Source: Planctomycetaceae bacterium (GTDB taxonomy: Bacteria > Planctomycetota > Planctomycetia > Planctomycetales > Planctomycetaceae). From it: DNA of 42,356 nt. The notes beneath the pieces are model-generated. The model was given only the letters and a program-made list of their open reading frames with translations. It made no database searches and was not told where the DNA came from. Every line of letters begins with the position of its first letter. Position 1 is the first letter of the stretch. Position numbers and translations under genes: made by a program. Shown piece after piece: positions 2,321-42,356 of this stretch. The DNA is taken from assembly GCA_019636315.1 (NCBI GenBank), contig JAHBXU010000001.1:1-42356 (forward strand). The letters run 5' to 3'.

Positions 2321-2516
2321 GCTGCACCAGCTGGCAAGACCACACACATCATGATGATGAACAGACCGGTCGGTACGAGCTTGGCACCGTTTGGCTTCTT
2401 CCCGTTCATAACCATGTCGTTCACTGTTGTTGCGACAATGCCACGCGGCGACTATGCAGTATCGGCGCGGCTCGTCGCAAAGGCGATACAGCGAAGACGG
2501 TATTTTGCGAAGAACA

Positions 2517-3140
2517 TTAAGGTTGCCGATGCGGGAGTCCTTTGTAGAGATCGTCGACAAGCCCGTCGAAAATAGATCGGAGAGCGGTATTCCAACCCTG
2601 GACCAGTGCCTCCGGAGATCTATCGGCTATTGGGATGTCGCTGCGGTAATCGCGCTGCAACACGATGGCCGGAGGATTTTTCGCGGGGTCGATCAGAAGC
2701 ACGTGAAGGCCCAGCGCGGCTTTCGCCGGAGTCGCGCGGTAATCTCCATAGAGAGCCGTCACGGTTCCTTCCAGAAGGTGGGTGGCGGGTAACGGTCCTG
2801 ACGAATCCATCACATATTGGAACAGGCCGGTCGATGTCAACCAGTTCTGGAGCTGCTGGGTGAGCATGGCATTGGGCGGGACAAACCACTCATTGTAAAA
2901 GTCCCTTTCGTACCGTGCGTCGCTCGTGCGATACACCAACTCCTTCCCTTCAAAATCCGGAGAGGCTCGCAATTTCCGAATCTTCAGGACTGTTCCTGGA
3001 ATAGAGGCATGCGTCTTGCCCTGGCGAATCGCCTCCAGAGCATAGGAATGTTTTTCCGGGTAGCTCTTGGTGAGATTGATGCAACCGCCGAGCGCGAGAA
3101 GGGCAAGGCAGAAGCTCATGAAAAGGGGGCGCGCCGTCAT
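2517..3140 (-). CDS. ABC-type transport auxiliary lipoprotein (PqiC/YmbA-like, DUF330-type)
   Basis: The internal ATG at 3140 lies 10 nt after the upstream gene's stop and gives MTARPLFMSFCLALLALGGC, a lipobox. The segment VYRTSDARYERDFYNEWFVPPNAMLTQQLQNWLTS resembles E. coli YmbA/PqiC as I remember it. It is the last gene of an MCE/Mla-type cluster. Confidence 0.75.
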   Translation of the reverse strand: MTARPLFMSFCLALLALGGCINLTKSYPEKHSYALEAIRQGKTHASIPGTVLKIRKLRASPDFEGKELVYRTSDARYERDFYNEWFVPPNAMLTQQLQNWLTSTGLFQYVMDSSGPLPATHLLEGTVTALYGDYRATPAKAALGLHVLLIDPAKNPPAIVLQRDYRSDIPIADRSPEALVQGWNTALRSIFDGLVDDLYKGLPHRQP

Positions 3141-3150
3141 CCCGGACGTC

Positions 3151-4182
3151 TCACCGCTCCGTCGCCCCGGTCCGCGGCGGAGGTTCGCCCAAGAATATTT
3201 GAGCGGGATATCGTTTCGCATTGTCGGTCAACTCCCGAAGGTTCTCCGACATCACTCGCAGATTCTCTACCGTGTCCTCGATGTCTTGACCCTTATTCGA
3301 GACGAGCCTGTCTATTCGCTGCATCGTACGTTCCAACCGGGCGACAGCGCCGGGGAATTGTTCGGATGCGATTTTGATTTGTTTCGATGCCTCTGACAAA
3401 TCAGCGATGAGCTGTCTCGTTCCTTGCATCGTGCCGGCCGCATCGGAAACAATGGCTCTGAGCTCAGGGCTCTCCACAAGCCGGCGCGTTTGTCGTGCCG
3501 TCTCTTGAAACTCGGCCAGCACTTGTCCCGTCCGGCTACTCAATGCCTGCGCATTTGTGTCTTTGACCAATTTCGTCACTTCCAGCACAAGGTTATCGAG
3601 ATTTCTGGTTATTGAGTGGATGTCGGCCTTTTCCAGATCTCTGGCAATGGTATGGAGAGCGGCGCCCAATACACTCACCGTGCTCGGAGCGGAAGGCAGG
3701 TACGCAGCTTGAGGTTTCCACGGCACGTCTAATGCCGGATACTGCTGCGCGTCCAGGTAATCCGCTTCCAGGTACACCACTCCTGTCACGCCCTGTGACG
3801 CCAGCCGGATCCGAAGTCCCGCTGTAATCATGCCGCCGCGCTCCACTTCTTTTTCTTCCTGCGTGAGATGAGGCGTCAGATCAGCAGCAGACCCACGGAC
3901 GAGGATATAGCGCCCATAGCGCAGCAAGTCTTCTTTGCCGAGTTCTGCCCCATAGATATCGCCCACGAAACCGATCGCTTCCACCGTTCCGACCTGCACG
4001 CCGCGATACTTGATCGGCGATCCGACAGCGAGGCCTTGGACGGATTCGTCAAAATAGCTTTCCCAATACACGACCTTCTTGAACCACTTCCCTCCGCTCA
4101 GCGCGACGATCGCGATGATCAGTGTGACCGATCCGAGCACGATAAAGACGCCGATCTTATGATAGTTGGCCTTGGCGCTCAT
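3151..4182 (-). CDS. MlaD/MCE-domain substrate-binding protein with a long C-terminal helical extension
   Basis: 343 aa. It has an N-terminal TM helix (IGVFIVLGSVTLIIAIVALS) and an MCE core (VQGLAVGSPIKYRGVQVGTVEAIGF). About 170 aa of helix-prone, heptad-like C-terminus follow. The start overlaps the ATPase gene's stop (ATGA, 4179..4182). Confidence 0.85.
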   Translation of the reverse strand: MSAKANYHKIGVFIVLGSVTLIIAIVALSGGKWFKKVVYWESYFDESVQGLAVGSPIKYRGVQVGTVEAIGFVGDIYGAELGKEDLLRYGRYILVRGSAADLTPHLTQEEKEVERGGMITAGLRIRLASQGVTGVVYLEADYLDAQQYPALDVPWKPQAAYLPSAPSTVSVLGAALHTIARDLEKADIHSITRNLDNLVLEVTKLVKDTNAQALSSRTGQVLAEFQETARQTRRLVESPELRAIVSDAAGTMQGTRQLIADLSEASKQIKIASEQFPGAVARLERTMQRIDRLVSNKGQDIEDTVENLRVMSENLRELTDNAKRYPAQIFLGEPPPRTGATER

Positions 4183-6207: not shown

Positions 6208-9200
6208 TCACGTCGGTGAGTCAAGCTTGAACACGAGCGTACTGCTGCCTGCGAACTCGTACACCTCGTTCTTGATTCCCAGTTTGATCGGCGCCGCGCC
6301 GCCATTGTGTCCGCGCACGGTGAGCGCATCGCGCGTGAGTCGTAGATCGAGCGAATGTCCGCGATAGCGAAGGTACATGTCGAGGCGTTCCACTTCCAGA
6401 GGCAATGTCGGGTTGAGACGGAGAACGTCTGCCGTGACTTCGATCCCCATCGTTCCGCGCTGCACGAGATCGACCGTTCCCGCCATGGCGCCGAGATGGA
6501 CGCCCTCGGCTGTGGTGCCCCGCTGAATATCGTTCACATCGCTCTGAAGCGCTTCCGCGAAGTAGCGGGTCGCCCGCGGCCGGTCGGAACGCGCCAGCAC
6601 CCAGGCATGGACCACGCGGGACAGGGTCGAGCCGTGGGACGAGCGGGAGTCGTAGTAGTCGACGTGTCTCGGAATCGTTGCCGGGTCGAACGGATAGCTC
6701 AGACGCTCAAACAGTTCGCCGAGCTCTTCGGAGGAAAATAGATAAAACAACATCAGGACATCCGCCTGTTTCGATGCCTTGTAGCGGTTGGCGCTGTCGT
6801 TCTCCGCCTCGAGAATCAGTTCGAGGCGGCCGATGTTGCCGTACCGCATGCGATAATTCTCCCAATCCAACTCGGCGAGCTTTTCGTAGCCTTCGAACTG
6901 ACTGATGATTCCGTCGTCATGAAACGGCACATACATCCTGCGGCTGATCTCGTCCCAGCGGACGATCTCTTCCTCCGACAATGCCAGCCGCGCCATGAGC
7001 GCCTCGCGACGCATGTCTGGGAGCAAGTCGAGCACCTCCAGCGCCCGCCACAGCACCCATACGGCCATGATGTTGGTATAGGCGTTGTTCTTCAGGCCGG
7101 GCGCCGGTGAGTCGGGATATCCCTCGTGAAACTCGTCTGGCCCCATGACGCCGTGAATCTCATAACGTCCTCGCTGATCGTTGAAATGGGCGATGCTGGA
7201 CCAGAACCGCGCGATCTCGAGAATCAGTTCGGCGCCGTGAAACCGCAAAAACTCGATGTCGTGAGTGACTTGAAAGTACTGCCAGACGTTATAGGCGACG
7301 GCGCTCCCCACGTGGCGCTGCAAGTACGAGTTGTCCGGCACCCAGCGTTGCGAGCGCGGGTTCAGATTGAGCTCCTGCGTTTCTTCCTGCCCGTCGCTTC
7401 CGCTTTGCCAGGGGAACATGGCACCTTGAAACCCCGCGCGCCTAGCCGCGGCCCGCGCCTCACCCAGACGCCGGTAGCGATAGAGCAGAAGAGACCGGGT
7501 GATCTCAGGCATTCGATAATTGAGAAACGGGAAGATAAACAGTTCATCCCAAAAGATGTGGCCCTGATAGGCCTCGCCGGTCCAGCCGCGCGCCGGCACG
7601 CCGATATCGAGGCCGATCGAGTTGGGCGAGACCGCTTGCAGCAGATGAAACATGTTCAACCGAAGCAGCATCGAGACGTTCAGCTTGAACGGGGCGTCGG
7701 CCGGCTGCATATGCACGTCGAAGCGGCGCCACACCTGCTTCCAGACGAGGACATGCTTCTCCATGATCGCGTCGAAGCGACCCGCGCCCGCGATCGCCTT
7801 CCGGGCCGCCAATCCGCATTCGGAAATAGCGTGATCGCGCGAGGTATAGAGCGAGACAAGCTTTTCAAGCCTCACTGTCTCGCCCTGTCTCAGTTCGAGG
7901 TCGAATTCCTGTCCGATGTAGCCCGGTTCGTCGATGACCCGACGCGGACTGTTCAATGAGTTGCCGTTGGCGAACGCCTGCGTTCGCGCCACCTGTGCAA
8001 TCTGAATATGGGATTGGCAGGTGCGGGCGAGCAACGAGACGCTGTCTTCGCCGACTACCTCGCCTGCCGGCGGCTCTAGATGTCGATTGTTGAATGTGCG
8101 ATAAAGCTTGGCGCCCGCATTGACGACACGCCCGTCGATCGCCGAACGCACCACGACGCGCGCGGACCAGTTTTCGGCGGTGAGCGCCAGTTCGAGCGCG
8201 CCCAAGTGTATGTCGCTCATCGATACTAAACGGCGTTCCTTCAACGTACTGCGCCGGCCCTGGCCGTCATCGAAACGCACGGCGCGGACCAGCATGCCGA
8301 GCCGGAGATCGACCTCCTGGCGATAGGAGAGGATTGTGACTCTTCTCAGGTCGAACCAGTCCCCGTCGGCGATGCGAAACTCGAGCGCAAGCCAATTGGG
8401 AAGGTTCACGAGGTCCTCGTTCTCGACCGTCCGACCGGCAATGTCGGTGCGCAGTCGGTTGTAGCCGCCGGCGAGGTAGGTGCCGGGATAGTGGATCCCG
8501 TCCGCCCGCGCCCAAGTTACTGCCCCGCGCGTCGAGAAATAGCCGTTGCCGAGCGTGCACAATGCTTCGCGGGTTCCCTCGCTCGCCGGGTCGAACCCTT
8601 CGTACACCAGTGACCACTCAGAAGGTGACTCCGTCGTCACTTGGACCTGCGCGAGACTGGTCACCACCACATCGGCGCCCGCCTCGCGCAGCGCCTGAGA
8701 TTGCCCGCTGCGATCAATTCCGATGACCAAATCAAATCCGCCGGTGCGCCCCGCCTCGACGCCGGCGAGGGCGTCTTCGACGACGACGGCCCGCGAGGGG
8801 TCGGCCCTGACGCGCCGCGCCGCTTCCAGAAACCCATCGGGCGCCGGCTTGCCGTTGAGGGCCAGCCTGGTTATGTCCAGTCCGTCCACCCGTGCGTCGA
8901 AGAGGCCCGATATCCCCGCGGCCTCGAGTACTGCCGCGCAGTTGTTGCTGGAGGACACGACGGCCGTCTTGACCTTCTGAGTGCGAAGTGTTTCGACGAG
9001 CGCGATCGTGGCTTCATAGGGCTCGACGCCGTGCTGCTCCAGCTGTTGCAGAAAATAGTGGTCCTTCATGTTGCCCAACGCATGCGCGGTCTGCATGCCG
9101 GGGGCGTCGTCGGGCGTACCGGAAGGCAGGGCAATGCCGCGCGAGTCAAGAAACGAGGCCACGCCGTCGTACCGGGGCTTGCCGTCGACGTAGCGCCGGT

Positions 9201-9393
9201 AGTCGCTCTCGATGTCGAAGGGGATGAACGCTTCGCCTGTGGCTGCGGCCCGCTGTTCGAGAAACCCGTCGAACAGTCTTTTCCACGCCGCTGCATGCAC
9301 GCTCGCTGTTTTGGTCAGCACGCCGTCGAGATCGAACAAAACGGCGTCGTAATCACGAGGAGACAACGTGACAATGGGAACCGTCTTTTTCAT
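6208..9393 (-). CDS. fusion protein: beta-phosphoglucomutase-type HAD hydrolase (N-terminal) plus glycoside hydrolase family 65 alpha-glucoside phosphorylase (C-terminal)
   Basis: 1061 aa. HAD motif I is AVLFDLDGVLTKT and a late HAD motif is VVEDALAGVEAGRTGGF (beta-PGM-like). The remainder carries a GH65 hallmark around the catalytic acid (GWTGEAYQGHIFWDELFIFPF) and has the length of maltose/trehalose/kojibiose phosphorylases. Confidence 0.85.
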   Translation of the reverse strand: MKKTVPIVTLSPRDYDAVLFDLDGVLTKTASVHAAAWKRLFDGFLEQRAAATGEAFIPFDIESDYRRYVDGKPRYDGVASFLDSRGIALPSGTPDDAPGMQTAHALGNMKDHYFLQQLEQHGVEPYEATIALVETLRTQKVKTAVVSSSNNCAAVLEAAGISGLFDARVDGLDITRLALNGKPAPDGFLEAARRVRADPSRAVVVEDALAGVEAGRTGGFDLVIGIDRSGQSQALREAGADVVVTSLAQVQVTTESPSEWSLVYEGFDPASEGTREALCTLGNGYFSTRGAVTWARADGIHYPGTYLAGGYNRLRTDIAGRTVENEDLVNLPNWLALEFRIADGDWFDLRRVTILSYRQEVDLRLGMLVRAVRFDDGQGRRSTLKERRLVSMSDIHLGALELALTAENWSARVVVRSAIDGRVVNAGAKLYRTFNNRHLEPPAGEVVGEDSVSLLARTCQSHIQIAQVARTQAFANGNSLNSPRRVIDEPGYIGQEFDLELRQGETVRLEKLVSLYTSRDHAISECGLAARKAIAGAGRFDAIMEKHVLVWKQVWRRFDVHMQPADAPFKLNVSMLLRLNMFHLLQAVSPNSIGLDIGVPARGWTGEAYQGHIFWDELFIFPFLNYRMPEITRSLLLYRYRRLGEARAAARRAGFQGAMFPWQSGSDGQEETQELNLNPRSQRWVPDNSYLQRHVGSAVAYNVWQYFQVTHDIEFLRFHGAELILEIARFWSSIAHFNDQRGRYEIHGVMGPDEFHEGYPDSPAPGLKNNAYTNIMAVWVLWRALEVLDLLPDMRREALMARLALSEEEIVRWDEISRRMYVPFHDDGIISQFEGYEKLAELDWENYRMRYGNIGRLELILEAENDSANRYKASKQADVLMLFYLFSSEELGELFERLSYPFDPATIPRHVDYYDSRSSHGSTLSRVVHAWVLARSDRPRATRYFAEALQSDVNDIQRGTTAEGVHLGAMAGTVDLVQRGTMGIEVTADVLRLNPTLPLEVERLDMYLRYRGHSLDLRLTRDALTVRGHNGGAAPIKLGIKNEVYEFAGSSTLVFKLDSPT

Positions 9394-9618
9394 TGGAGAT
9401 CGTACCTCAGGTACCGCATTGGATCATGGCAACGTCCGTTTGAAGGCAGCTCCCAGCTTTTTCAGGCCCCGTATGAATGTCCTTGTCAAGATTGATACGT
9501 ATGGCCAGGCGGCCGCCTCCTGCGCCAGCGAGCGCCAGGAGCAAGGCATACAAATCGGCCCCATCTCCGTGAATCTCCTGAGCGCCAAGTCGTGCCGCCA
9601 ACTCCGTTTGACGGACTC

Positions 9619-12090
9619 CTAGGAGACAGGACATGGTGTCACTCTCCAAATGTCCCGAGCATATTCCGCAATCGTGCGGTCGCTGGAAAACTTGCCCGAG
9701 CTGGCGACATTCAGAATAGCTTTGTTCGCCCAGCCCTGCGGGTCAGCGTAGAGGTGCCCCAGCCTCTCCTGCGTCTCGCTGTACGACTTGAGGTCCGCCA
9801 GGTGCATGTAATAGTCGCCGTGCGTCAACAGGGCCTCGCGAATGGGATTGAAGACCCCCGGCTCATTGCGGCTGAAATGGTCGGAAAAGATCAGGTCCAG
9901 CGCCCGGCGCGTTTCCGGCTCGTTCTCATAGTGCCACTGCGGATTGTACCAACCGCGGCTATCGGCAACCTCCTCGGCTGTGAGACCGAACAGAAAGAGA
10001 TTCTCTTCCCCGGCTGCCTCAGCCATCTCGATCGTCGCGCCGTCGCGTGTGCCGATCGTCAGCGCACCGTTCATCATGAACTTCATGTTGCCCGTCCCGC
10101 TGGCTTCATAGCCGGCCGTCGAGATCTGTTCGGACAAATCGCTGGCCGGAATCAGGCGCTCGGCCACCGAGACACAATAATCCGGCACAAACACGACTCT
10201 CAGATGCCTGCCCACGGCGGGATCTCCCTTGATGGTGCCGGCCAGATTGTTGATGAACTTGATGATGAGCTTAGCGAGCGCGTAGGCCGGCGCCGCCTTG
10301 CCGGCGAAGAAGAATGTGCGCGGTGCGAACTCGAGGTGTGGATTCTCGCGCAGACGATTGTAGAGCACCACGATGTGCAGGACGTTGAGCAGTTGCCGCT
10401 TATATTCGTGAATGCGTTTGATCTGGCTATCAAAGATTGTGTCGGGGTCTACCACCTCACCGGTTGTCGCCTTGAACCACTCCACAAATCGCATCTTGGC
10501 TTCGCGTTTGGCCTTGCGAAAGCCTTCCTGAAACCCCTTGTCCCTGGCGAGCGGCTTCAATCTGGCTAATTGGCTGAGGTCGGTAATCCAGCCATCGCCG
10601 ATCGCATCAGTAATAAGCTGTGTCAATCCGGGATTGCAGAGCAGCAACCACCGGCGGGGCGTGACGCCGTTGGTTTTGTTGTTGAAACGTGTCGGAAATA
10701 TCTCGGCAAGATCCGGCACAACCCGCGTCCGCAACAGTGTGGAGTGAATGGCGCTGACACCGTTCGTGCTGTGTGAGCCGACGATGGCGAGATTGGCCAT
10801 GCGAACTTTCCGGTCTGTGCCGTCCTCGATGAGACTGACACGGTCAAGGCGTGAACGGTCGTTGGGGACCTGCGTCCGTAGCGAGTCGAGAAAACGCCGG
10901 TTGATCTCGCACATAATCTCCGCCAACCGCGGGAGCAAGACTTCAAACCATCTGAGCGGCCATTTCTCCAATGCTTCAGGCAAGAGGGTATGGTTCGTGT
11001 ACGCGAGCGAGCGCTGCGTCAGGTCCCAGGCTTGCTCCCAGCCGAGGTGCGCCTCATCGAGCAGGATCCGCATGAGCTCGGGCACGGCCATCGCCGGGTG
11101 CGTATCGTTCAGTTGGATCGCGATCTTTTCTGGCAATGCGCTCCAGTCGTTGTTCGTATGCCGGAAGCGGTGGATCAGATCGGCGAGCGAGCAGGCGACG
11201 AGGAAATATTCCTGCAGGAAGCGCAGCCCCTGTCCCATGGACGTCGAATCATCGGGATAGAGTACCCGCGTGAGCGATTCGGCGGTAAGCGTTTCTGCCA
11301 ACGCCCCCGCGAAGTCGCCACGGCTGAATTGTTGAAAGTCAAAGTAGTCCGGACTGGCGGCGGCCCAGAGACGAAGCGTATTGATGGTCTTCCCTCCGTA
11401 GCCGATCACCGGCCGGTCGAACGGGATGCCGAGGAGAATCGACGGTCGGCCGATGATAGGATGCAATTCCCCCGCGCGGAGTTCGAATGAACAGTTGAGC
11501 TTCACTTCAACCGCTTCCTCCAATCGTGCCACTTCCCAGGGATCAGGACGCCGCAGCCAATTGTCGGGCTGCTCGAATTGCCAGCCGTCCTTGATTGTTT
11601 GCTTGAACATGCCGTATTCGTAGCGGAGACCGTAACCCATACCCGGAATCTCAAGCGTTGCCATAGAGTCCAGAAAGCAGGCCGCCAGACGGCCAAGACC
11701 GCCATTCCCGAGTCCGGCATCGGGCTCCATCTCGACCAGGGCCGGATCCACATGGCTCTTCTTCTTCATGATTTCGAGCGAGATCTCCGCCAGTTGCGCA
11801 TTGACGATATTGTTGGCCAGTGAACGCCCCAAAAGGAACTCCATGGAGAGGTAGTAGACCCGCTTCGGATTCTCTCGCTCGTAGGTCTTCTCCGTCAGGA
11901 GCCAGCGCTGCGAAATGACGTCTCGGAGGGTCCGTGCCACTGCCTCAAACTGCTCGCGCGGGCCGGCCTTCTCGGGAACAATGACATTGTCGAACACAAG
12001 ATGCCGGTCGTAGAGTGCATCATCTGTCCCATAGAACTGGACCGGCCCGCATCCATATTGTTCACGAAGCTCGTTGAGGCGCTCGTTCAT
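9619..12090 (-). CDS. glgP: glycogen/alpha-glucan phosphorylase
   Basis: 823 aa. It has the PLP-lysine motif EASGTGNMKFMMNGALTIGTRDGA, the N-terminal YYLSMEFLLGRSL motif and the GLGNGGLGRLAACFLDS motif. Confidence 0.95.
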   Translation of the reverse strand: MNERLNELREQYGCGPVQFYGTDDALYDRHLVFDNVIVPEKAGPREQFEAVARTLRDVISQRWLLTEKTYERENPKRVYYLSMEFLLGRSLANNIVNAQLAEISLEIMKKKSHVDPALVEMEPDAGLGNGGLGRLAACFLDSMATLEIPGMGYGLRYEYGMFKQTIKDGWQFEQPDNWLRRPDPWEVARLEEAVEVKLNCSFELRAGELHPIIGRPSILLGIPFDRPVIGYGGKTINTLRLWAAASPDYFDFQQFSRGDFAGALAETLTAESLTRVLYPDDSTSMGQGLRFLQEYFLVACSLADLIHRFRHTNNDWSALPEKIAIQLNDTHPAMAVPELMRILLDEAHLGWEQAWDLTQRSLAYTNHTLLPEALEKWPLRWFEVLLPRLAEIMCEINRRFLDSLRTQVPNDRSRLDRVSLIEDGTDRKVRMANLAIVGSHSTNGVSAIHSTLLRTRVVPDLAEIFPTRFNNKTNGVTPRRWLLLCNPGLTQLITDAIGDGWITDLSQLARLKPLARDKGFQEGFRKAKREAKMRFVEWFKATTGEVVDPDTIFDSQIKRIHEYKRQLLNVLHIVVLYNRLRENPHLEFAPRTFFFAGKAAPAYALAKLIIKFINNLAGTIKGDPAVGRHLRVVFVPDYCVSVAERLIPASDLSEQISTAGYEASGTGNMKFMMNGALTIGTRDGATIEMAEAAGEENLFLFGLTAEEVADSRGWYNPQWHYENEPETRRALDLIFSDHFSRNEPGVFNPIREALLTHGDYYMHLADLKSYSETQERLGHLYADPQGWANKAILNVASSGKFSSDRTIAEYARDIWRVTPCPVS

Positions 12091-12142
12091 AAGACCTCCG
12101 TCGAAGAACTCAAGAGTGAAGGTCGTCCAGGGAAAAAGTGTC

Positions 12143-14227
12143 TCACTTGGCGTCGCTTGCTCTCAGCGCGAACAAGGCCACCATCGACCGGGGTTGCACC
12201 AGATAGTTGTCACCCGGAACGAACGGCGCATCGGGCCCGTCACAGATGTCATCCGGCGAGTCCAGACAGGTGTCGATCAGGCGACGCCAGCCCTGCTCTG
12301 ACTTCGCCGCGCCCGGCAGTTCGAATGCCAGGGGCTCCCAGTAGGCATTCACGATGACATGGACGAGGAACCGCCCGTCAAGAGTGCCGGCCGTCAAGGC
12401 CAGGCTGTGGGATTCGTCGTTCCAGTCCGGCCGATTGAGCACGATTCCATGCCAGTCGATCCTTGCCCGGCAAAGGATCTCATTCAGAGTCAGACTGCTC
12501 GCCTCTCGCGCCAGTGTACTCCTCAAGCGCAACAAGAGGAGGAACCTCACGAAGCGATGAATGTCGGCATGCTTTCCGAGTCTCGTCCAGTCGAACCAAC
12601 TGATGTCATTGTCCTGGCAATAGGCGTTGTTGTTCCCGCGCTGTGTACGCCGGACTTCGTCGCCCATAAGCAAGATCGGCGCGCCGACGGACAGAAGCGT
12701 CAGCGCCAGGAAGTTTTTCACCTGCCGGTTGCGCAAGCGCTCGATGGACGGGTCGTCGGCCGGACCTTCCACTCCGCAATTCCAGCTCAGGTTGAAGTCG
12801 GTCCCGTCCCGGTTGTCCTCTCCGTTCGCTTCATTGTGTTTCTGGTTGTAGGACACCAGGTCGTTGAGCGTGAATCCGTCGTGACAGGTCACGAAATTGA
12901 GGCTCTGCTCGGGTTCTCGCTCCTTGTGCCCATAGAGGTCAGGACTGCCTAACAATCGTCGGGCCACCCGCCTCACCGTGCCGTTGTCTCCCTTCATGAA
13001 GCTGCGGACGTCATCCCTGAATTGGCCGTTCCACTCTTTCCAACTGTCTCCAATAAACGAGCCAACCTGGTACAGGCCCGCCGCGTCCCAGGCCTCCGCG
13101 ATCAGCTTCGTTCCGGCTAGGCACGGATCCGATTCGATGTCCCACAGGATGGGGGGATTCTTCAACGGCCGGCCATCCTCGTCGCGGGAGAGGATCGAGG
13201 CCAAATCGAAGCGAAAGCCGTCTACGTGCATCGACTCCACCCAGTAGCGCAGGCTGTCGAGGATCAACCGGCGGACAATCGGTTGATTCGCGTTCAAGGT
13301 GTTCCCGGTGCCGGTATAGTCGGCATAGCGTGACCGGTCCTCCTCCAGCATGTAATACGCCGCGTTTTCCAGGCCGCGATAGCAGAGCGTCGGGCCTGCG
13401 TGGTCTCCTTCCGCCGTATGGTTGAACACGACATCGAGGATGATCTCGATGCCCGCCCGATGAAGCGCCTTGACCATGTCGCGAAACTCGTCCATCGGGC
13501 CCAAGTGATCTTTGCGGGAACTATACCCGTGGTGCGGCACGAAGAATGAGATGGGGCTGTAGCCCCAGTAATTGACGAGACCCCTCGGAGCGTCCTGTTC
13601 GTCGAACTGGAACAGGGGCAGCAACTCCACTGCGGTGACGCCGAGATCCTGCAGGTACGGAATCTTGTCGATCAATCCTCGATACGTACCGCGCGTTTCG
13701 TGAGAGAGACCGGAACTGGGATGGCGGGTAAACCCGCGCACGTGCAACTCATAGATCACAGTCTTGGCAAACGGCCGTTTCAGCGGGATATCTCCCTCCC
13801 AGTCATATCTGGTGGGATCGACGACTATGCTCTTCATCGCAGTTGCGCAATTGTCACCCGGTACGGACGCGTTGACGCGGCTGTAGCAGGCCGGCATAGC
13901 CAGCGCCTTCCCGTATGGGTCAAGCAACAGCTTGCGTGAGTCAAACCGCAATCCATGTTGCGGCTCGGAAGGTCCGAACGCCCGATAGCCATAGATCTGG
14001 CCGGCCTGAATACCGGGCACGAAGATATGCCAATAGTGGTATGTCCGGTTCCACCGGGGATTGAGGGCCATCACTGTCGCTGGCTTCGCATCGTCCGTGT
14101 GATCGAACAGCAGCAGTTCCACAAGGGTGCTGTTCTTTGAGAACAGGCTGAAATTGACCCCGTCGGGGCAGACCGTCGAGCCGAGAGGAAAACTTTCACC
14201 CTGTTGGATCACCCGTTTCTGCTCCAT
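12143..14227 (-). CDS. glgX: glycogen debranching enzyme (isoamylase-type, GH13)
   Basis: GH13 conserved regions are present: [24 protein letters not shown] and [16 protein letters not shown]. The track ORF starts with TTG at 14233. The first ATG is at 14227 and overlaps the phosphoketolase 3' end by 19 nt. Confidence 0.9.
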
Positions 14228-16584
14228 TTCCAATCACGCACCTCAGGCATATCGTCGCCGTGCGTTGCGATGTACTGTTTGTGTTCAAGCAGCTTCTCGC
14301 GGATCGCCTGTTTGGCGTAGGCCGCCCGTGACCCGAGCTGCGGCAGCCGATCGATCACATCCCCGACTAGATGGAACCGATCGAGGTCGTTCATCACGAC
14401 CATATCGAACGGGGTCGAGGTCGTCCCTTCTTCCTTGTAGCCGCGCACGTGCAAATGCGGGTGATTGGTCCGCCGATAGGTCAGTCGGTGAATCAGCCAC
14501 GGGTATCCATGGAAGGCGAAGATGATCGGTTTGTCGGTCGTGAAGAGCGCATCGAATTCTTTGTCGCTCAATCCATGGGGATGCTCCTTTGGCGGCTGGA
14601 GTTTCATGAGGTTCACCACATTGATGACGCGAATTTTCAGTTGCGGCAGATGGCGGCGGAGCAGGTCTGTTGCGGCCAGTGTTTCGAGCGTCGGCACGTC
14701 ACCGCAACAGGCCATCACCACGTCGGGCTCGCTTCCCCTGTCGTTGCTGGCCCATTCCCAGATCCCGAGGCCGGCGGAGCAATGTTTGACGGCGGCGTCC
14801 ATCGTGAGCCACTGCGGAGCCGGTTGCTTCCCCGCGACGACCACGTTGACGTAGTTGCGGCTGCGGAGGCAGTGATCGGTGACCGACAACAGGCAGTTGG
14901 CGTCGGGGGGGAAATAGACCCGGATAACCTCCGCCTTCTTGTTGACGACATGGTCGATGAACCCGGGGTCCTGGTGACTGAATCCATTGTGATCCTGCCG
15001 CCAGACATGGGAGGACAACAGATAATTGAGCGAAGCAATCGGTCGCCGCCATGGAATGTGGTTGCAGACCTTCAGCCACTTGGCATGTTGATTGAACATC
15101 GAATCCACGATGTGAATGAAGGCTTCGTAGCAGGAGAAGAACCCGTGCCGGCCGGTCAGGAGGTACCCCTCCAGCCATCCCTGGCACTGGTGTTCGCTCA
15201 AGATCTCCATCACCCGACCATCCGGCGCCAGGTGGTCGTCGTAGGGATAGCGATCCGCCATCCAGGTGCGGTTGGTGACCTCCAAGACGTCTTGCCAGCG
15301 GTTCGAGTTGTTCTCGTCCGGGCTGAAGAGGCGGAAGTTTCGACCTTCCATATTCAGCTTCATCGTGTCCCGCAGGAATTTCCCCATCAGGCGGGTGGAC
15401 TCGGCCACGATCGCACCCGGTTTTGTCACCTTCACGGCATAGTCACGAAAATCCGGCAGACATAAGTCCCTGAGCAGCAGTCCGCCGTTCGCGTGCGGAT
15501 TTGCGCTCATCCGCCGCGTTCCCTTGGGAGCCAGTTCGCTGAGTTCTGGCTTGAGTCGTCCGGTCTTATCGAACAGTTCCTTCGGCTTGTAACTCTTCAT
15601 CCATTTTTCGAGGGTCTTGATGTGCGATGGTTTGTCCATGTCCCCCATCGGGACTTGGTGAGAACGCCAGTAATCCTCGGTCCGCTTGCCGTCGATCTGT
15701 TTCGGACCGGTCCAGCCTTTCGGCGTCCGGAGCACGATCATGGGCCAGAGCGGACGTGCGTGGGCGCCCCCTCGGCGCGCGCGGGCCTTGATGCGCCGAA
15801 TGTCCTCCAGAACGGCGTCGAGCGCGGCGGCCATGAGCTGATGCATCGTCCTGGGATCACGCCCTTCGACGAAATAGGGGGTGTAGCCGTACCCGCGAAA
15901 CAGGTGATCCAGTTCGTCGTGACTGATACGGGCCAGCACGGTGGGATTCGCGATCTTGTATCCGTTTAGATGGAGAATGGGAAGGACGACCCCGTCGGTG
16001 ACCGGATTCAGAAACTTGTTGGAATGCCAACTCGTCGCGAGCGGACCGGTTTCCGCTTCACCGTCGCCCACCACGGCGGCGACGATCAAATCCGGATTGT
16101 CGAACGCGGCCCCATACGCATGCGAGAGGGAGTAACCCAGCTCGCCGCCCTCGTGAATGGAGCCGGGGGTTTCCGGCGCGACGTGACTCGGAATTCCACC
16201 GGGGAACGAGAACTGGGTGAACAGCCGCTTCATGCCGTCCTCATCCTGTGAGATGTTCGGGTACACCTCGCTATATGTCCCTTCAAGGTAGGCGTTGGCC
16301 ACCAGCCCCGGTCCGCCATGTCCTGGGCCGGCGATATAGATGACGTTCAGGTCCTGTTCCTTGATGAGGCGGTTGAGATGCACATAGATGAGGTTCAGAC
16401 CCGGGGTCGTGCCCCAATGACCCAGCAACCGCGGTTTGATGTGCGTGCGCTTCAGCGGCTGTTTCAGCAACGGATTGTCGTACAGGTAAATCTGACCGAC
16501 GGAGAGATAATTGGCCGCGCGCCAGTACGCGTCTATCTTCCGCAGCATCTCAGGGCTCAGTGGACTTTGCGACGCTCTGCTCAT
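14209..16584 (-). CDS. xfp: xylulose-5-phosphate/fructose-6-phosphate phosphoketolase
   Basis: 791 aa. It has the characteristic N-terminus ([24 protein letters not shown]), the TPP-binding region ([15 protein letters not shown]) and [24 protein letters not shown] Shine-Dalgarno lies upstream. Confidence 0.95.
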
Positions 16585-16620: not shown

Positions 16621-16965
16621 TTATTGAGAGAGAGACCGCAGATACGCGAGCACTTCACGGGCCTCCTCATCGGAAAGGACGTACTTCCACCTTCCCATCG
16701 CCGTATTCCGTCGCCCCTCATGAATGGTCCTGAGCAAGGCGGCGTCAAGTTTTTCCTGAACCGCGGGGGAGGTCAGGTCGGCCGGTGGTGGATTGAACAG
16801 ACGATAGCCATCCCCCTTGCCTCCCTGGCCATGACACACCATACAGTGCTCCTCGAACAGCCGCTTTCCTTTGGAGGCACCGCCTTCGGCAGCCCACAGG
16901 CCGCATCCCTGGACTGCCCCAATGAGTGTGAGTAGGATAAACAGCGCACGAGCCAACGCATTCAT
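16621..16965 (-). CDS. secreted monoheme class I c-type cytochrome
   Basis: 114 aa. It has an N-terminal signal peptide (MNALARALFILLTLIGAVQG), a single CMVCH heme-binding motif and a candidate distal Met in NTAMGRW. Confidence 0.8.
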   Translation of the reverse strand: MNALARALFILLTLIGAVQGCGLWAAEGGASKGKRLFEEHCMVCHGQGGKGDGYRLFNPPPADLTSPAVQEKLDAALLRTIHEGRRNTAMGRWKYVLSDEEAREVLAYLRSLSQ

Positions 16966-17051: not shown

Positions 17052-17969
17052 TCACAGCTGCAGGTAGAACCCAAATCCCACCGTCTCGACTTTCTGCGCG
17101 AAGAACTGCCCATAGGGATTGAAGCCGTGATAGTAATTCACCAGGAAGCGGAAGCGGCGACTCGATCCCTGTCTCGACCACTCGATCCCGCCGACGACAT
17201 TGGCATTGATCACCCAGTTCAACTCCTCGAATGACTTGAAGTCCGCCCCGAGCACCGGCGTGACGAGAAACCCTGCCAGCGCCCGTCCAAGGATCGGTGA
17301 TGGAATGGTGGGGCCGCGCAACTCGACTCCCCACTGCACGCGATTCCGGTCGAGCGAGGCCGGTTCGCGATGGACCAAATACCCTCCGCCCGCGTACAAC
17401 CTCCCCCACCGGTAGTCGTAGGAAACCAGCGCTTCCAGTTCTTCAAAACTCAGATTCAACCGGTTGAACCCCGGCCGGCCCAGCAGGAACTCATCGCCGA
17501 GGTGACTGCTTTGGTGATAGAGACGGACTCTCGTCGACCAGCCCCCGGATCGCCAGGACAGGGGAACGCCCACGACATAGTCGGTGTTGATGAGATCCGA
17601 CGAGGGCGCGCTCAGGTCGAATTGGGAAAACACCCCGGCGAGAAGACCGACTTGCCATCCGTTACAACCCTCTCGCCTCGTATAGAACCCGAAGTTTTCC
17701 CCGAACCCCACTGACCCGATATTGGCATGGGTCCCATCCGTCCTCGCGCGGGCAGCCAGGTAGCTGGCAAAGAACTGCGGTTGTTTCGGATCGGCCATCA
17801 AGGGTCGAAAGACGTCGTCTGTGGGAAATGCCGCGCCGGTCACGCCTTCGGTCGCATACTCATAACGGCAATCGACGGCTTGCCCGGCCGGCGGTTCGTC
17901 CGCGAGAACCGGCCCCGCCGTGGCCACCGCCAGCGCCAGTATCCCCACAGCCCATCGTCCTTGTCTCAT
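17052..17969 (-). CDS. outer-membrane beta-barrel-like protein, DUF1207-like
   Basis: The internal ATG at 17969 has a GAGGTG Shine-Dalgarno and gives a signal peptide (MRQGRWAVGILALAVATAGPVLA). The FRPLMADPKQPQFFASY motif resembles the F-x-P-L-x-A-D-P-x-x-P hallmark I recall for DUF1207. The protein shows an alternating beta-strand pattern and a C-terminal aromatic residue (YLQL). Confidence 0.55.
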   Translation of the reverse strand: MRQGRWAVGILALAVATAGPVLADEPPAGQAVDCRYEYATEGVTGAAFPTDDVFRPLMADPKQPQFFASYLAARARTDGTHANIGSVGFGENFGFYTRREGCNGWQVGLLAGVFSQFDLSAPSSDLINTDYVVGVPLSWRSGGWSTRVRLYHQSSHLGDEFLLGRPGFNRLNLSFEELEALVSYDYRWGRLYAGGGYLVHREPASLDRNRVQWGVELRGPTIPSPILGRALAGFLVTPVLGADFKSFEELNWVINANVVGGIEWSRQGSSRRFRFLVNYYHGFNPYGQFFAQKVETVGFGFYLQL

Positions 17970-18041
17970 GTTCGAAACACCTCGCATCGCGCGACTCATT
18001 GGAACTGGCGCCCAAAGCGCCACATGTCGAAGCCGAACAAC

Positions 18042-28167: not shown

Positions 28168-29370
28168 TTACTGGGATTGCTCGCTGAGCACGGCGATCCC
28201 AGGTAGTTCTTCACCGCCAATGAATTTCAACGATGCCCCTCCGCCTGTTGACACATGGCTGATCTCCGTCTCCAGTACTTCCGCTTTTCGCACCGCCGCC
28301 ACGGTGTCGCCGCCTCCCACCACCGTGAAGGCGCCACGCCAATGGGCCAGTGCCATGGCCCGCGCGATGTCGACTGTCCCGTCGGCACATTCATCGACTT
28401 CGAACGCGCCGAGGGGACCGTTCCAGAAGATGGTCCCGGTTCCTTGCAGCAACTCGTGCGCGAATGCCAGGGACGTATCGCGGCCGATATCCAATCCCAT
28501 AAAGCCTGCAGGGATCTCTCGATGGACGAGTTGCAGTCTGTCCCGCTGCTCCGCGTTAGCGGCAATGACGTGGTCCTCCGGCAGCAGAATGTGCTTTCGA
28601 TACTGCGCCAGCACGTCTTTGGCCCAGGGAATGAATTCAGGCTCGACCGGCGAATCACCCGTCGCCACGCCTTGGGCAGCCAGGAACGTATAGGCGATTC
28701 CGCCGCCCAGAAGGATGGTATCGGCCTTCGGCAGCAGCGCCTTCAACGCCGACAGCTTGTCCTTGATCTTGATCCCACCGACCACCACCCTGAAGGGACG
28801 AACGGGGCGATCGCGCACCTGACTCAGGACATCCATTTCCTTACGCACGAGAAAACCGGCCAGGCGGTCTGCGAAGAGTTGTGCTGCTCCGTACGTCGAA
28901 GCATGGGCCCGGTGCATCGTGCCGAAGGCATCGTTCACATAGAGCTCCGCCAGTGCGGCGAGTTGCTTGGCAAAGACCGGATCATTTGCCTCCTCGCCCG
29001 GTTCGAACCGCAGATTCTCGAGCAGCAGAACCTCTCCAGGCTTCAACGTGGTGAGCGCTTGTTTCACCGACTCGCCAACCGCCGCCTCGACGAACTTTAC
29101 TGTTGAGACTCTCAGAATCTGTCCAAGGCGATCAGCAACCGGTTTCAGCGACAGTGCTGGCACCACTTTCCCCTTGGGCTTTCCCAGATGGGAGGCGAGG
29201 ATCACTTTCGCGCCACGCTGGGAGAGGTATTCAATCGTCGGGATGGCTTGCCGAAGGCGGTAGTCCTCACGAATCCGACCGTGATCGAGAGGCACGTTGA
29301 AGTCCACACGAACCAAGACCGTTCGTTCTCGATAGCGATCATGGGGTAGATCAGAGATGATTCGTTTCAT
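28168..29370 (-). CDS. pgk: phosphoglycerate kinase
   Basis: 400 aa. It has RVDFNVPL near the N-terminus, FWNGPLGAFE, and GGGDTVAAV near the C-terminus. Confidence 0.95.
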   Translation of the reverse strand: MKRIISDLPHDRYRERTVLVRVDFNVPLDHGRIREDYRLRQAIPTIEYLSQRGAKVILASHLGKPKGKVVPALSLKPVADRLGQILRVSTVKFVEAAVGESVKQALTTLKPGEVLLLENLRFEPGEEANDPVFAKQLAALAELYVNDAFGTMHRAHASTYGAAQLFADRLAGFLVRKEMDVLSQVRDRPVRPFRVVVGGIKIKDKLSALKALLPKADTILLGGGIAYTFLAAQGVATGDSPVEPEFIPWAKDVLAQYRKHILLPEDHVIAANAEQRDRLQLVHREIPAGFMGLDIGRDTSLAFAHELLQGTGTIFWNGPLGAFEVDECADGTVDIARAMALAHWRGAFTVVGGGDTVAAVRKAEVLETEISHVSTGGGASLKFIGGEELPGIAVLSEQSQ

Positions 29371-41386: not shown

Positions 41387-42356
41387 TCCTCCTCCTATGA
41401 ACACTCATTCGACGCTTCGCAGCATATTCAACATATCGGCAGATTTCGCATCGACATCCACGAAGTGTGTGATGGAGCCCCCAAACACACGCACTATCAA
41501 CGGCCAATTAATGGTTCAAACATGGCGGGCAACGAGATCGATCATGTTGGACAGCTTGCAAATGGGGTTTTGGCGTTCCGACGCAACTATGCTCATGGTC
41601 CCCGACCAACCCTTTTACCATCAGCCCCTTACACCCGCATGCCCCTGCGCTCTATCATACGGCTTCACGCAACAAGACCACAATTGATCGAGCCCTCACT
41701 TGGCAGCCAAGCGACCGACGAACCGGTTCTGGTCCCGTTTCGAAAAGCTTTCCCAGGCTCGGGAAGCTCGTCGATCACCCGCCTCCAGTCCGGCACCTGA
41801 CTTTCCTAGCAGGATGCGGAAAAAGTCCGCCAGCGGCATTCTCGCAAGACACTGCCGCCTCACTATCTCGACGGCGTTCACAAGCGTGGTGCGCTTTATT
41901 CAGCGCGTCGTGAACCTCAAACGCTCAACGTACGGCCACGGGAAAAGGGCTTGTCTTGGCAGGCTCGGGGTGGGCGGGTACGAATGAACGATTCGCCTCC
42001 GGGACACCGGGCGCTCACCGACTCGCGCCCGTCCACAGACGTGACGCTGCGGCCTTGCTGGACGGCCTTTTTGCGCATCCTGCGGACGATTCTGACACCG
42101 ACACGGCACGTGAGCTAATCGCGGCGTCTGACGCAACAATCGAGTTTTTCCGCAGCCTGCTGGGAGCCTGTCCGACATTAGGAAACACGAAAGTTTCGTG
42201 TGCACACATTCGGCTCAGGATCAACGATTTCAATTCGATCAATATGATTTCATCCTCCCATATCAGTCAATTTCGGCAATGTCGGACAGGCTCCTAGAAG
42301 CCCAGGTAGGGGAAACAGGCGTGCCTCCGAGATGGGCGTGCGCGGTGAACCGATGG

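Follow-up and report, generated by a model that had tools for sequence, protein, structure and literature searches.

Why should a gene for phosphoketolase overlap a gene for glycogen debranching? The question is raised by the window, the 42,356-nt stretch analyzed here (contig JAHBXU010000001.1 at its full length), in which the phosphoketolase gene xfp is followed by the glycogen genes glgX and glgP and by a gene that fuses a beta-phosphoglucomutase (beta-PGM)-like domain to a GH65 phosphorylase domain. We consider it probable that these four genes make up an operon with which a Nitrospiraceae-like bacterium mobilizes glycogen when stressed or starved; which way the flux runs, and whether anoxia, starvation or osmotic stress sets it off, are matters that we infer. 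The features are as follows.

xfp: 14209-16584, minus strand; phosphoketolase of 791 aa, with XFP_N, XFP, XFP_C and NF003619
glgX: 12143-14227, minus strand; glycogen debranching enzyme, with CBM_48, Alpha-amylase, an ISOA C-terminal domain and TIGR02100
glgP: 9619-12090, minus strand; GT35 alpha-glucan (glycogen/maltodextrin) phosphorylase of 823 aa, with PF00343 and TIGR02093
glgP-fusion spacer: 9394-9618, minus strand; short ancestral spacer plus a strain-specific insertion of ~180 nt
beta-PGM/GH65 fusion: 6208-9393, minus strand; 1061 aa, with a beta-PGM-like HAD domain and GH65 N, m and C domains
beta-PGM-like HAD domain of the fusion: 8644-9360, minus strand; residues 12-250, TIGR02009
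GH65 phosphorylase domain of the fusion: 6256-8622, minus strand; residues 258-1046, trehalose-6-phosphate-phosphorylase-like

An initial annotation, made from the letters of the window, had placed all four genes on one strand; the open reading frames lie on the minus strand, and Pfam and NCBIfam support their identities. The junctions that it described were likewise recovered. The xfp and glgX genes overlap by 19 nt (glgX starts with the ATG at 14227, and xfp stops with the TGA at 14211-14209), 52 nt read from the sequence separate glgX from glgP (12091-12142), and 225 nt separate glgP from the fusion (9394-9618), although this last gap is 45 nt in most strains. The arrangement recurs widely. 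Independent assemblies (Logan, ENA and NCBI GCA_019637075.1) contribute at least 23 contigs that encode an identical Xfp, and all eight Xfp-bearing contigs that we inspected keep the order DUF1207, cytochrome c, xfp, glgX, glgP, fusion, MlaE. Near-identical stretches turn up in six RNA runs and in 14 DNA runs, the latter from over eight studies of wastewater, sludge, bioreactor, biofilm, wetland and soil. Because it recurs across assemblies and runs, the locus is not an assembly artefact and its organism is widespread.

Contigs from four RNA libraries, each from a different study, span nearly the whole locus, and every junction is bridged at least twice, in at least two studies: cytochrome c/xfp by X15 record 8 and X18 record 22, xfp/glgX by X15 record 7 and X20 record 29, glgX/glgP by X17 record 13 and X20 record 27, and glgP/fusion by X15 record 4 and X17 record 11. 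These bridging contigs are consistent with co-transcription of the four genes; contig depth in RNA libraries cannot rank expression. Scans for promoter-like and terminator-like sites found none in any spacer of the cluster, and the terminator-like sites of the cluster as a whole, all within genes, were as numerous as in shuffled sequence. An Rfam scan of the cluster gave no match in the spacers, and a tRNA scan of it yielded nothing relevant.

The window (1-42356) is the whole of contig C1 of the metagenome-assembled genome (MAG) G000, which is 72% complete. C1 appears to be mis-binned: on sequence grounds its host would be Nitrospiraceae-like (Nitrospira-type) and not the bulk organism of the MAG. 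The MAG's GTDB relatives, with genomes of 5-10 Mb, have only xfp, glgP, glgX and ABC genes in common with the window, at no more than 75% nucleotide identity. Nitrospiraceae-type genomes match C1 at 72-93% nucleotide identity, and the window genes for OFOR, PpsA, PGK, GAPDH and ADH match relatives of a 'Nitrospiraceae bacterium' genome at 72-83%. The closest genome, G117, is collinear with the window across ~17 kb at 89-93% nucleotide identity. The GC content of C1 is 0.590, compared with 0.612 +/- 0.010 for the MAG, and the contig is an outlier in tetranucleotide composition as well. The MAG has a second PGK gene and a second xfp fragment, and the window PGK has 42-45% identity with its counterparts in the MAG's relatives.

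PGK was dropped as a taxonomic marker, since the window protein is only 45-49% identical even to Nitrospirae PGKs and is therefore an uninformative divergent paralogue. Its gene (28168-29370) stands in an OFOR-PpsA-PGK-GAPDH block; in all genomes tested, those of Nitrospirae among them, the PGKs found share 42-49% identity with the window protein, and one relative (G085) has a 75% nucleotide match to the window gene. The window PGK has the look of a divergent second paralogue associated with the gluconeogenic block. The gene inventory of G000, in which we found two ackA genes, pgi, PGM-type genes, tal and tkt but not pta, was discarded as evidence for the organism of the window, the contig looking foreign to the MAG: with C1 mis-binned, the ackA, pgi and pgm genes of the MAG cannot be credited to that organism.

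Phosphoketolase and glycogen genes

Xfp scores 603, 297 and 333 bits against the Pfam domains XFP_N, XFP and XFP_C and 1530.7 bits against the phosphoketolase model NF003619 (cut-off 962), which places it in that family. Among solved structures it is most closely matched by 8io8 (1199 bits); it is mostly 82-88% identical to Nitrospirales Xfp proteins, and 84% identical to that of G117. For the ATP-inhibited class typified by SeXPK, Lu et al. (2023; PMC10365998) described the motif PWx2Hx3YRx7HxRx31R at the C-terminal dimer interface. Numbered as in 8io8, these residues are P702, W703, H706, Y710, R711, H719, R721 and R753, in agreement with those published for the Synechococcus enzyme (PMC10365998), and in the alignment to 8io8 all eight are present in the window protein, as P695, W696, H699, Y703, R704, H712, R714 and R746. 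Judging from this motif, Xfp is predicted to be of the ATP-inhibited class and to be active only at low energy.

The two glycogen enzymes are readily recognized. GlgX, with its CBM_48 and Alpha-amylase domains, scores 718.9 bits against the debranching-enzyme model TIGR02100 (cut-off 640.9). GlgP scores 1004 bits against PF00343 and 1062 bits against TIGR02093, well over the cut-off; its scores against the narrower equivalog models for GlgP (NF011562, 845 bits, cut-off 1546) and MalP (NF011561, 843 bits, cut-off 1273) are nearly equal and both below the threshold.

Relatives of the host associate phosphoketolase with acetate kinase and with glycogen phosphorolysis. We found xfp in 62 of 101 Nitrospirales-type genomes, several of which have two copies, and examined 40 Nitrospirales xfp neighborhoods. 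The acetate kinase gene ackA is present at 34 of the 40 loci (directly adjacent to xfp in 32), and a GT35 phosphorylase gene lies within ~9 kb at 18 of the 40, counts that come from kin that are not independent and so overstate the number of independent events. The commonest Nitrospirales order is a gene for a short (~590 aa) GT35 protein, ackA, xfp, DUF1207 and Mla genes, sometimes with glgX ahead; in these loci xfp usually has DUF1207 and then Mla-type genes downstream of it. Four genomes, G117 among them, have the order ackA-xfp-PGI-HisPhos (histidine phosphatase)-[glgX]-glgP-PPK2-PFK, and one Nitrospirae MAG has xfp-ackA-glgP. At L100, genes for a PPK2 polyphosphate kinase and a PFK-family kinase (2441-3259 and 1008-2414) lie downstream in such an ackA-xfp-pgi-glgP cluster, as they do at L103, which hints that the mobilization of polyphosphate and of glycogen is co-organized with phosphoketolase. 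The closest relatives also encode PGM-type mutases and a PTA_PTB enzyme.

Beyond the Nitrospirales, glgP, glgX or a GH65 gene lies within 10 kb of xfp at 13 of the 80 best xfp loci drawn from many phyla, where the rough chance expectation is ~1%. These 13 loci are from Planctomycetota, Verrucomicrobiota, Alphaproteobacteria, Cyanobacteria and a 'delta proteobacterium' MAG, and the linkage is also seen in the family to which the bulk organism of G000 belongs. The variety of architectures argues that linkage between xfp and glycogen genes has been selected repeatedly, although related genomes are not independent. The bulk organism of the MAG itself has, on contig C301 (1-6641, minus strand), the cluster glgX-ppk2-ackA-two open reading frames-glgP, which is another independent case of linkage between glycogen genes and ackA in a different lineage; its xfp fragment lies at the end of contig C271 (6368-6964).

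Put together, GlgX and GlgP would release glucose-1-phosphate from stored glycogen by phosphorolysis, with no ATP spent; alpha-PGM and PGI, encoded elsewhere, would convert it to fructose-6-phosphate; and Xfp, switched on at low ATP, would cleave fructose-6-phosphate or xylulose-5-phosphate to yield acetyl phosphate. Acetate kinase, whose gene adjoins xfp in most relatives, could then convert acetyl phosphate to acetate and ATP, or the PTA_PTB enzyme of the relatives could instead take it to acetyl-CoA. The fusion would interconvert trehalose-6-phosphate plus inorganic phosphate and two molecules of glucose-6-phosphate, joining the hexose-phosphate pool to trehalose metabolism. Running catabolically it would feed Xfp, an option that fits the position of the fusion, or of its split two-gene counterpart, adjoining xfp in the window and at L131, L126 and L071. 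The initial annotation had drawn an entirely phosphorolytic route from glycogen to acetyl phosphate, and with ackA, GT35, pgi, glgX, pfk and ppk2 all found in the company of xfp in relatives this is still the best reading, except for the part assigned to the GH65 domain (see below). Its proposal that the route serves as a survival fermentation has gained support, both from the full ATP-inhibition motif shared with the cyanobacterial enzyme and from the recurrent linkage of xfp, ackA and glycogen genes.

The beta-PGM/GH65 fusion

The best solved relative of the GH65 domain is 9lb6/9lb7 (485 bits), deposited as 'Trehalose-6-phosphate hydrolase'; these entries probably come from the structural work of 2025 on trehalose-6-phosphate phosphorylase (T6PP) that PMC13121652 cites. 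Other solved matches are kojibiose phosphorylase (362 bits), glucosylglycerol phosphorylase (235) and the maltose phosphorylase 1h54 of L. brevis (188). In the GH65 phosphorylase CsKP the catalytic acid is E483, the phosphate site comprises K/R330, Y337, S631-S632 and H675, and the -1 subsite comprises F342-W343-D344 and K596-Q597 (PMC11442529). Alignment to 3wiq gives as their counterparts the acid E754, the phosphate-site residues R602, Y609, the S-T of 'HGSTLS' (the same pair as in 9lb6) and H966, and the -1 subsite residues F614-W615-D616 and K875-Q876. With the catalytic acid and the phosphate site both kept, the domain should be a phosphorylase and not a hydrolase.

Substrate preference was read from the specificity positions 64/392/394/402/416/585 (CsKP numbering) of De Beul et al. 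2021 (PMC8537180), at which DQGQDE marks T6PP, KV[MF]NES maltose phosphorylase and EEAPxx kojibiose phosphorylase (PMC8537180). Five of the six positions are unambiguous: D at 64, Q663 at 392, G665 at 394, Q673 at 402 and E864 at 585. These are the residues of the T6PP subgroup (EC 2.4.1.216), and the motif of maltose phosphorylase (EC 2.4.1.8) is absent. Alignments to solved structures, together with the published motif, thus indicate that the domain is most likely of the T6PP type and not a maltose phosphorylase, with trehalose-6-phosphate as its predicted substrate. The maltose phosphorylase candidate was rejected on the 188 bits to 1h54 and on specificity positions that read D, Q, G, Q, (W/D), E.

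The partner domain resembles beta-PGM. It passes TIGR02009, a model for the beta-PGM family of hydrolases (155.3 bits, cut-off 153.35), and its best solved relative, 8h5s, is deposited as 'Beta-phosphoglucomutase' (219 bits). All counterparts of D8, D10, T16, H20, S114, K145, E169 and D170 of L. lactis beta-PGM are present, in the aligned motifs FDLDGVLTKTASVH, VVSSS, GKPAPD and VEDA; the distal phosphate-site residue K117 is N in the window protein and A in 8h5s. Two details weaken the assignment of the fusion as a T6PP joined to a beta-PGM. Position 416 of the GH65 domain is ambiguous, because it falls in a gapped loop in which W684 is the pairwise match and D687 of 'PDNS' stands three residues on; the same loop aligns to 9lb6 without a gap. 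The HAD domain fails the beta-PGM equivalog model TIGR01990 (91.3 bits, cut-off 189.4), and since it passes only the broader TIGR02009 a phosphatase activity is possible too.

Relatives support a tie to trehalose-6-phosphate. In 13 related small genomes (2.1-3.1 Mb), a gene for a beta-PGM/trehalose-phosphatase fusion (532-638 aa) precedes one for a T6PP-like GH65 protein (809-841 aa), which ties this GH65 clade to trehalose-6-phosphate. The GH65 proteins of these pairs are 55-58% identical to that of the window, the trehalose-phosphatase domain PF02358 scores ~175 bits, and the pairs are flanked by unrelated housekeeping genes. Mapped examples are:

beta-PGM/trehalose-phosphatase and GH65 gene pair, L126: 11131-15149
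beta-PGM/trehalose-phosphatase and GH65 gene pair, L141: 6639-10657
further copies of the pair: L142-L146

In G151, a genome in which OtsA was not found, the pair comes directly after ackA-xfp. The pair looks like a self-contained route from glucose-6-phosphate to trehalose. In G117, G111 and G068, OtsA is encoded next to OtsB.

Locus history and alternative explanations

G117 has the same flanks as the window (RbbA-type ABC 97% identical, ABC-2 92%, cytochrome c 84%, MlaE 92%, MlaF 95%) and orthologues at the same locus of glgX (90%), glgP (87%) and the fusion (91%). Its only xfp found lies in an ackA-pgi cluster on another contig. The absence of xfp from this position in G117 points to glgX-glgP-fusion as the conserved core and to the xfp of the window as a lineage-specific insertion, precisely between cytochrome c and glgX; the insertion created the 19-nt overlap with glgX. 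When synteny is compared, then, the notion of a four-gene unit conserved across relatives does not hold: the linkage of xfp is evolutionarily recent, and G117 is without xfp here. DUF1207 (17052-18023), which lies upstream of xfp in the window, is 60% identical to its G117 counterpart, compared with 84-97% for its neighbors.

A skeptic could hold that the adjacency is meaningless, xfp having come to lie beside glgX by neutral rearrangement and Xfp serving mainly, in aerobic growth, a carbon-conserving supply of acetyl-CoA or the regulation of central metabolism instead of glycogen fermentation. We judge this unlikely, yet several observations suit it, weigh against a glycogen-mobilizing operon, or do both. 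In G117 cytochrome c is directly followed by glgX and xfp is absent from the cluster, the break falling exactly between those two genes, and with xfp outside the cluster in the closest genome its adjacency to glgX could indeed be neutral; Xfp is also less similar to that of G117 (84%) than its neighbors are to theirs (87-97%). The PTA_PTB enzyme of relatives could carry acetyl phosphate to acetyl-CoA, and the cyanobacterial Xpk also brakes carbon fixation (PMC10365998). No ackA, pgi, pgm or pta gene was seen that belongs to the organism of the window; the MAG is mostly another organism, and both ackA genes of the MAG are of a different type from those of Nitrospirales (35-42% identity). The RNA evidence consists of contigs, for which DNA carry-over is possible, and a two-gene contig is not proof of one transcript; the kinship behind the counts of ackA and GT35 neighbors has been noted above. 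Against neutrality stand the translational overlap of 19 nt with glgX, which every strain seen has retained, and the recurrence of xfp linkage with glycogen genes and ackA, arising independently in several phyla and in several architectures.

The other alternatives concern the fusion. The initial annotation had it phosphorolyse maltose or another glucobiose left over from glycogen, completing a phosphorolytic route to glucose-6-phosphate. In both the window and G117 the fusion does lie together with glgX and glgP, its phosphorylase machinery is intact, and a GH65 enzyme with a beta-PGM partner is the classical arrangement for maltose phosphorylase, but the claim was not borne out and we now regard it as very improbable: 1h54 is the weakest phosphorylase match (188 bits against 485 for 9lb6), the specificity positions are D, Q, G, Q, -, E and not KV[MF]NES, the beta-PGM partner is fused to a trehalose-phosphatase in relatives, and all five close relatives checked encode MalQ. 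MalQ is the usual bacterial handler of short maltodextrins. A more serious contender, which we hold to be possible without favoring it, is biosynthetic: glgX, glgP and the fusion would turn glycogen into trehalose-6-phosphate and then, with OtsB, into trehalose, using no nucleotide sugar or ATP, while Xfp supplies ATP. The steps would run from glycogen to glucose-1-phosphate, glucose-6-phosphate and beta-glucose-1-phosphate, the last of which would combine with glucose-6-phosphate to give trehalose-6-phosphate and inorganic phosphate. This is compatible with the role that we favor for xfp and reverses the direction assumed for the fusion. It draws strength from the glgX-glgP-fusion unit that G117 keeps without xfp, from the 13 genomes in which a stand-alone beta-PGM/trehalose-phosphatase is paired with a T6PP-like GH65, from the OtsB of G117, G111 and G068, and from G151, where a phosphatase would be without substrate, OtsA not having been found, unless the GH65 protein makes trehalose-6-phosphate. 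The in vitro T6PP step strongly favors formation of trehalose-6-phosphate (stated equilibrium constant 760; PMC13121652), and the Synechococcus Xpk-Ack pathway has been linked to osmotic stress. On the other side, the OtsA beside OtsB in G117, G111 and G068 removes the need for an alternative route there, G157 has the fusion next to xfp and lacks a trehalose-phosphatase, the beta-PGM equilibrium favors glucose-6-phosphate, and a 2025 review gives TrePP as degradative only (PMC12125463). The repeated position of the fusion or split pair next to xfp fits the feeding of hexose phosphate to Xfp at least equally well. That the fusion runs 'backwards' in vivo, making trehalose-6-phosphate from glycogen-derived glucose-6-phosphate for OtsB, or in related small genomes a fused phosphatase, to finish, seems to us possible but less likely than not. 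The catabolic reading meets its own difficulty in G157, in which neither OtsA nor OtsB was found, so that there is no obvious source or sink of trehalose-6-phosphate. Neither direction of the fusion explains every genome.

Known systems and neighboring features

Survival by way of phosphoketolase and acetate kinase has precedents. The cyanobacterial Xpk-AckA survival pathway was reportedly the subject of work by Chuang & Liao in 2021, and Synechococcus elongatus PCC 7942 is the case with a characterized enzyme, SeXPK, which operates in this pathway under dark anaerobic conditions (Lu et al. 2023, PMC10365998). That phosphoketolase can sustain survival on glycogen is already established in cyanobacteria. 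The system proposed here would resemble theirs in belonging to an autotroph that stores glycogen and in making ATP from acetyl phosphate by acetate kinase when it cannot respire; the window Xfp is about two-thirds identical to SeXPK and shares all eight ATP-regulatory residues. It differs in that the host, to judge from the OFOR and PpsA genes of the window, would fix CO2 by a route of the reverse tricarboxylic acid (TCA) type and not by the Calvin cycle, and in that xfp is clustered, in the window and relatives, with glgX, glgP, GT35, pgi, pfk and ppk2. A further difference is the trehalose-6-phosphate-type phosphorylase in the cluster, in a lineage known here from sequence alone.

The bifid shunt, or non-oxidative glycolysis, combines Xfp with transaldolase and transketolase. 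As in that pathway, Xfp would cleave fructose-6-phosphate and xylulose-5-phosphate to acetyl phosphate without a redox step, so that hexose could be fermented to acetate with little or no electron sink. In bifidobacteria this is the main pathway of growth on external sugars, whereas for the window we propose a survival role fed by internal glycogen. If that is true, up to three acetyl phosphates could be drawn from each glucose unit with no net redox step, as is established for non-oxidative glycolysis.

For the fusion the nearest precedent is TrePP with PgmB of L. lactis, which interconvert trehalose-6-phosphate plus inorganic phosphate with beta-glucose-1-phosphate plus glucose-6-phosphate, and beta-glucose-1-phosphate with glucose-6-phosphate (Andersson et al. 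2001, as related in PMC11442529 and PMC12125463). Here too a GH65 domain of the T6PP subgroup accompanies a beta-PGM, and catalytic and phosphate-site residues are conserved. The two activities are joined in one polypeptide in the window, unlike in L. lactis, and lie within a glycogen-degradation cluster. Trehalose-6-phosphate arises in L. lactis from uptake of trehalose by the phosphotransferase system (PTS), and in our case the direction may be reversed.

In wastewater plants and in soils, nitrite oxidation is chiefly the work of Nitrospira-type nitrifiers, which repeatedly meet periods of anoxia or without substrate. Glycogen turnover is on record for Nitrospira. For the comammox Nitrospira LK70 from wastewater, Yang et al. 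(2020, PMC7078480) proposed a POR-Pta-AckA 'homoacetate fermentation', with ackA and pta transcribed; glycogen was named as a possible substrate for anoxic survival, and the electron sink was left unexplained (PMC7078480). That proposal runs through pyruvate:ferredoxin oxidoreductase, with no mention of phosphoketolase, whereas an Xfp route would remove much of the redox problem. Should our reading be right, an ATP-gated Xfp-AckA module tied to glycogen would largely remove that problem for acetate fermentation in Nitrospira.

In the open-access literature we found no paper that links phosphoketolase with Nitrospira physiology and none that describes T6PP-based trehalose synthesis in nature. 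What distinguishes the present case from the known Xfp-AckA pathway is a module, predicted to be gated by ATP and widespread in the clade, that is physically linked with glycogen phosphorolysis in nitrifier relatives of the reverse TCA type and that in the window would be merged with a glycogen/trehalose-6-phosphate module. The trehalose-6-phosphate-type phosphorylase offers a testable link between glycogen and trehalose and, if it acts synthetically, would amount to a new route of trehalose biosynthesis. Encoded together with a phosphoketolase gated by ATP, such a route would let one glycogen store furnish a protectant as well as ATP for emergencies.

Upstream of the cluster is the following gene.

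small secreted class I cytochrome c: 16621-16965, minus strand; Pfam Cytochrom_C / Cytochrome_CBB3

It ends 36 nt upstream of xfp and is probably a neighbor and not a functional part of the cluster.

The glgP-fusion spacer is 45 nt long in three other strains (alignment of six strains and relatives). The ~180-nt insertion that lengthens it (~9420-9600) is present in the window and in GCA_019637075.1 and absent from those three strains and from G117. No second copy was found in any sequence compared, and the candidate of a repeat or mobile element was rejected on that ground. The insertion folds strongly, with a minimum free energy of -72 kcal/mol over 196 nt, a value taken without a shuffled control.

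Near the far end of the contig, a segment of ~250 nt (41795-42049) in which ARAGORN detects no tRNA has many matches at 80-87% identity in two Nitrospirales-type genomes (G075 and G076), and may be a repeat or the end of a mobile element.

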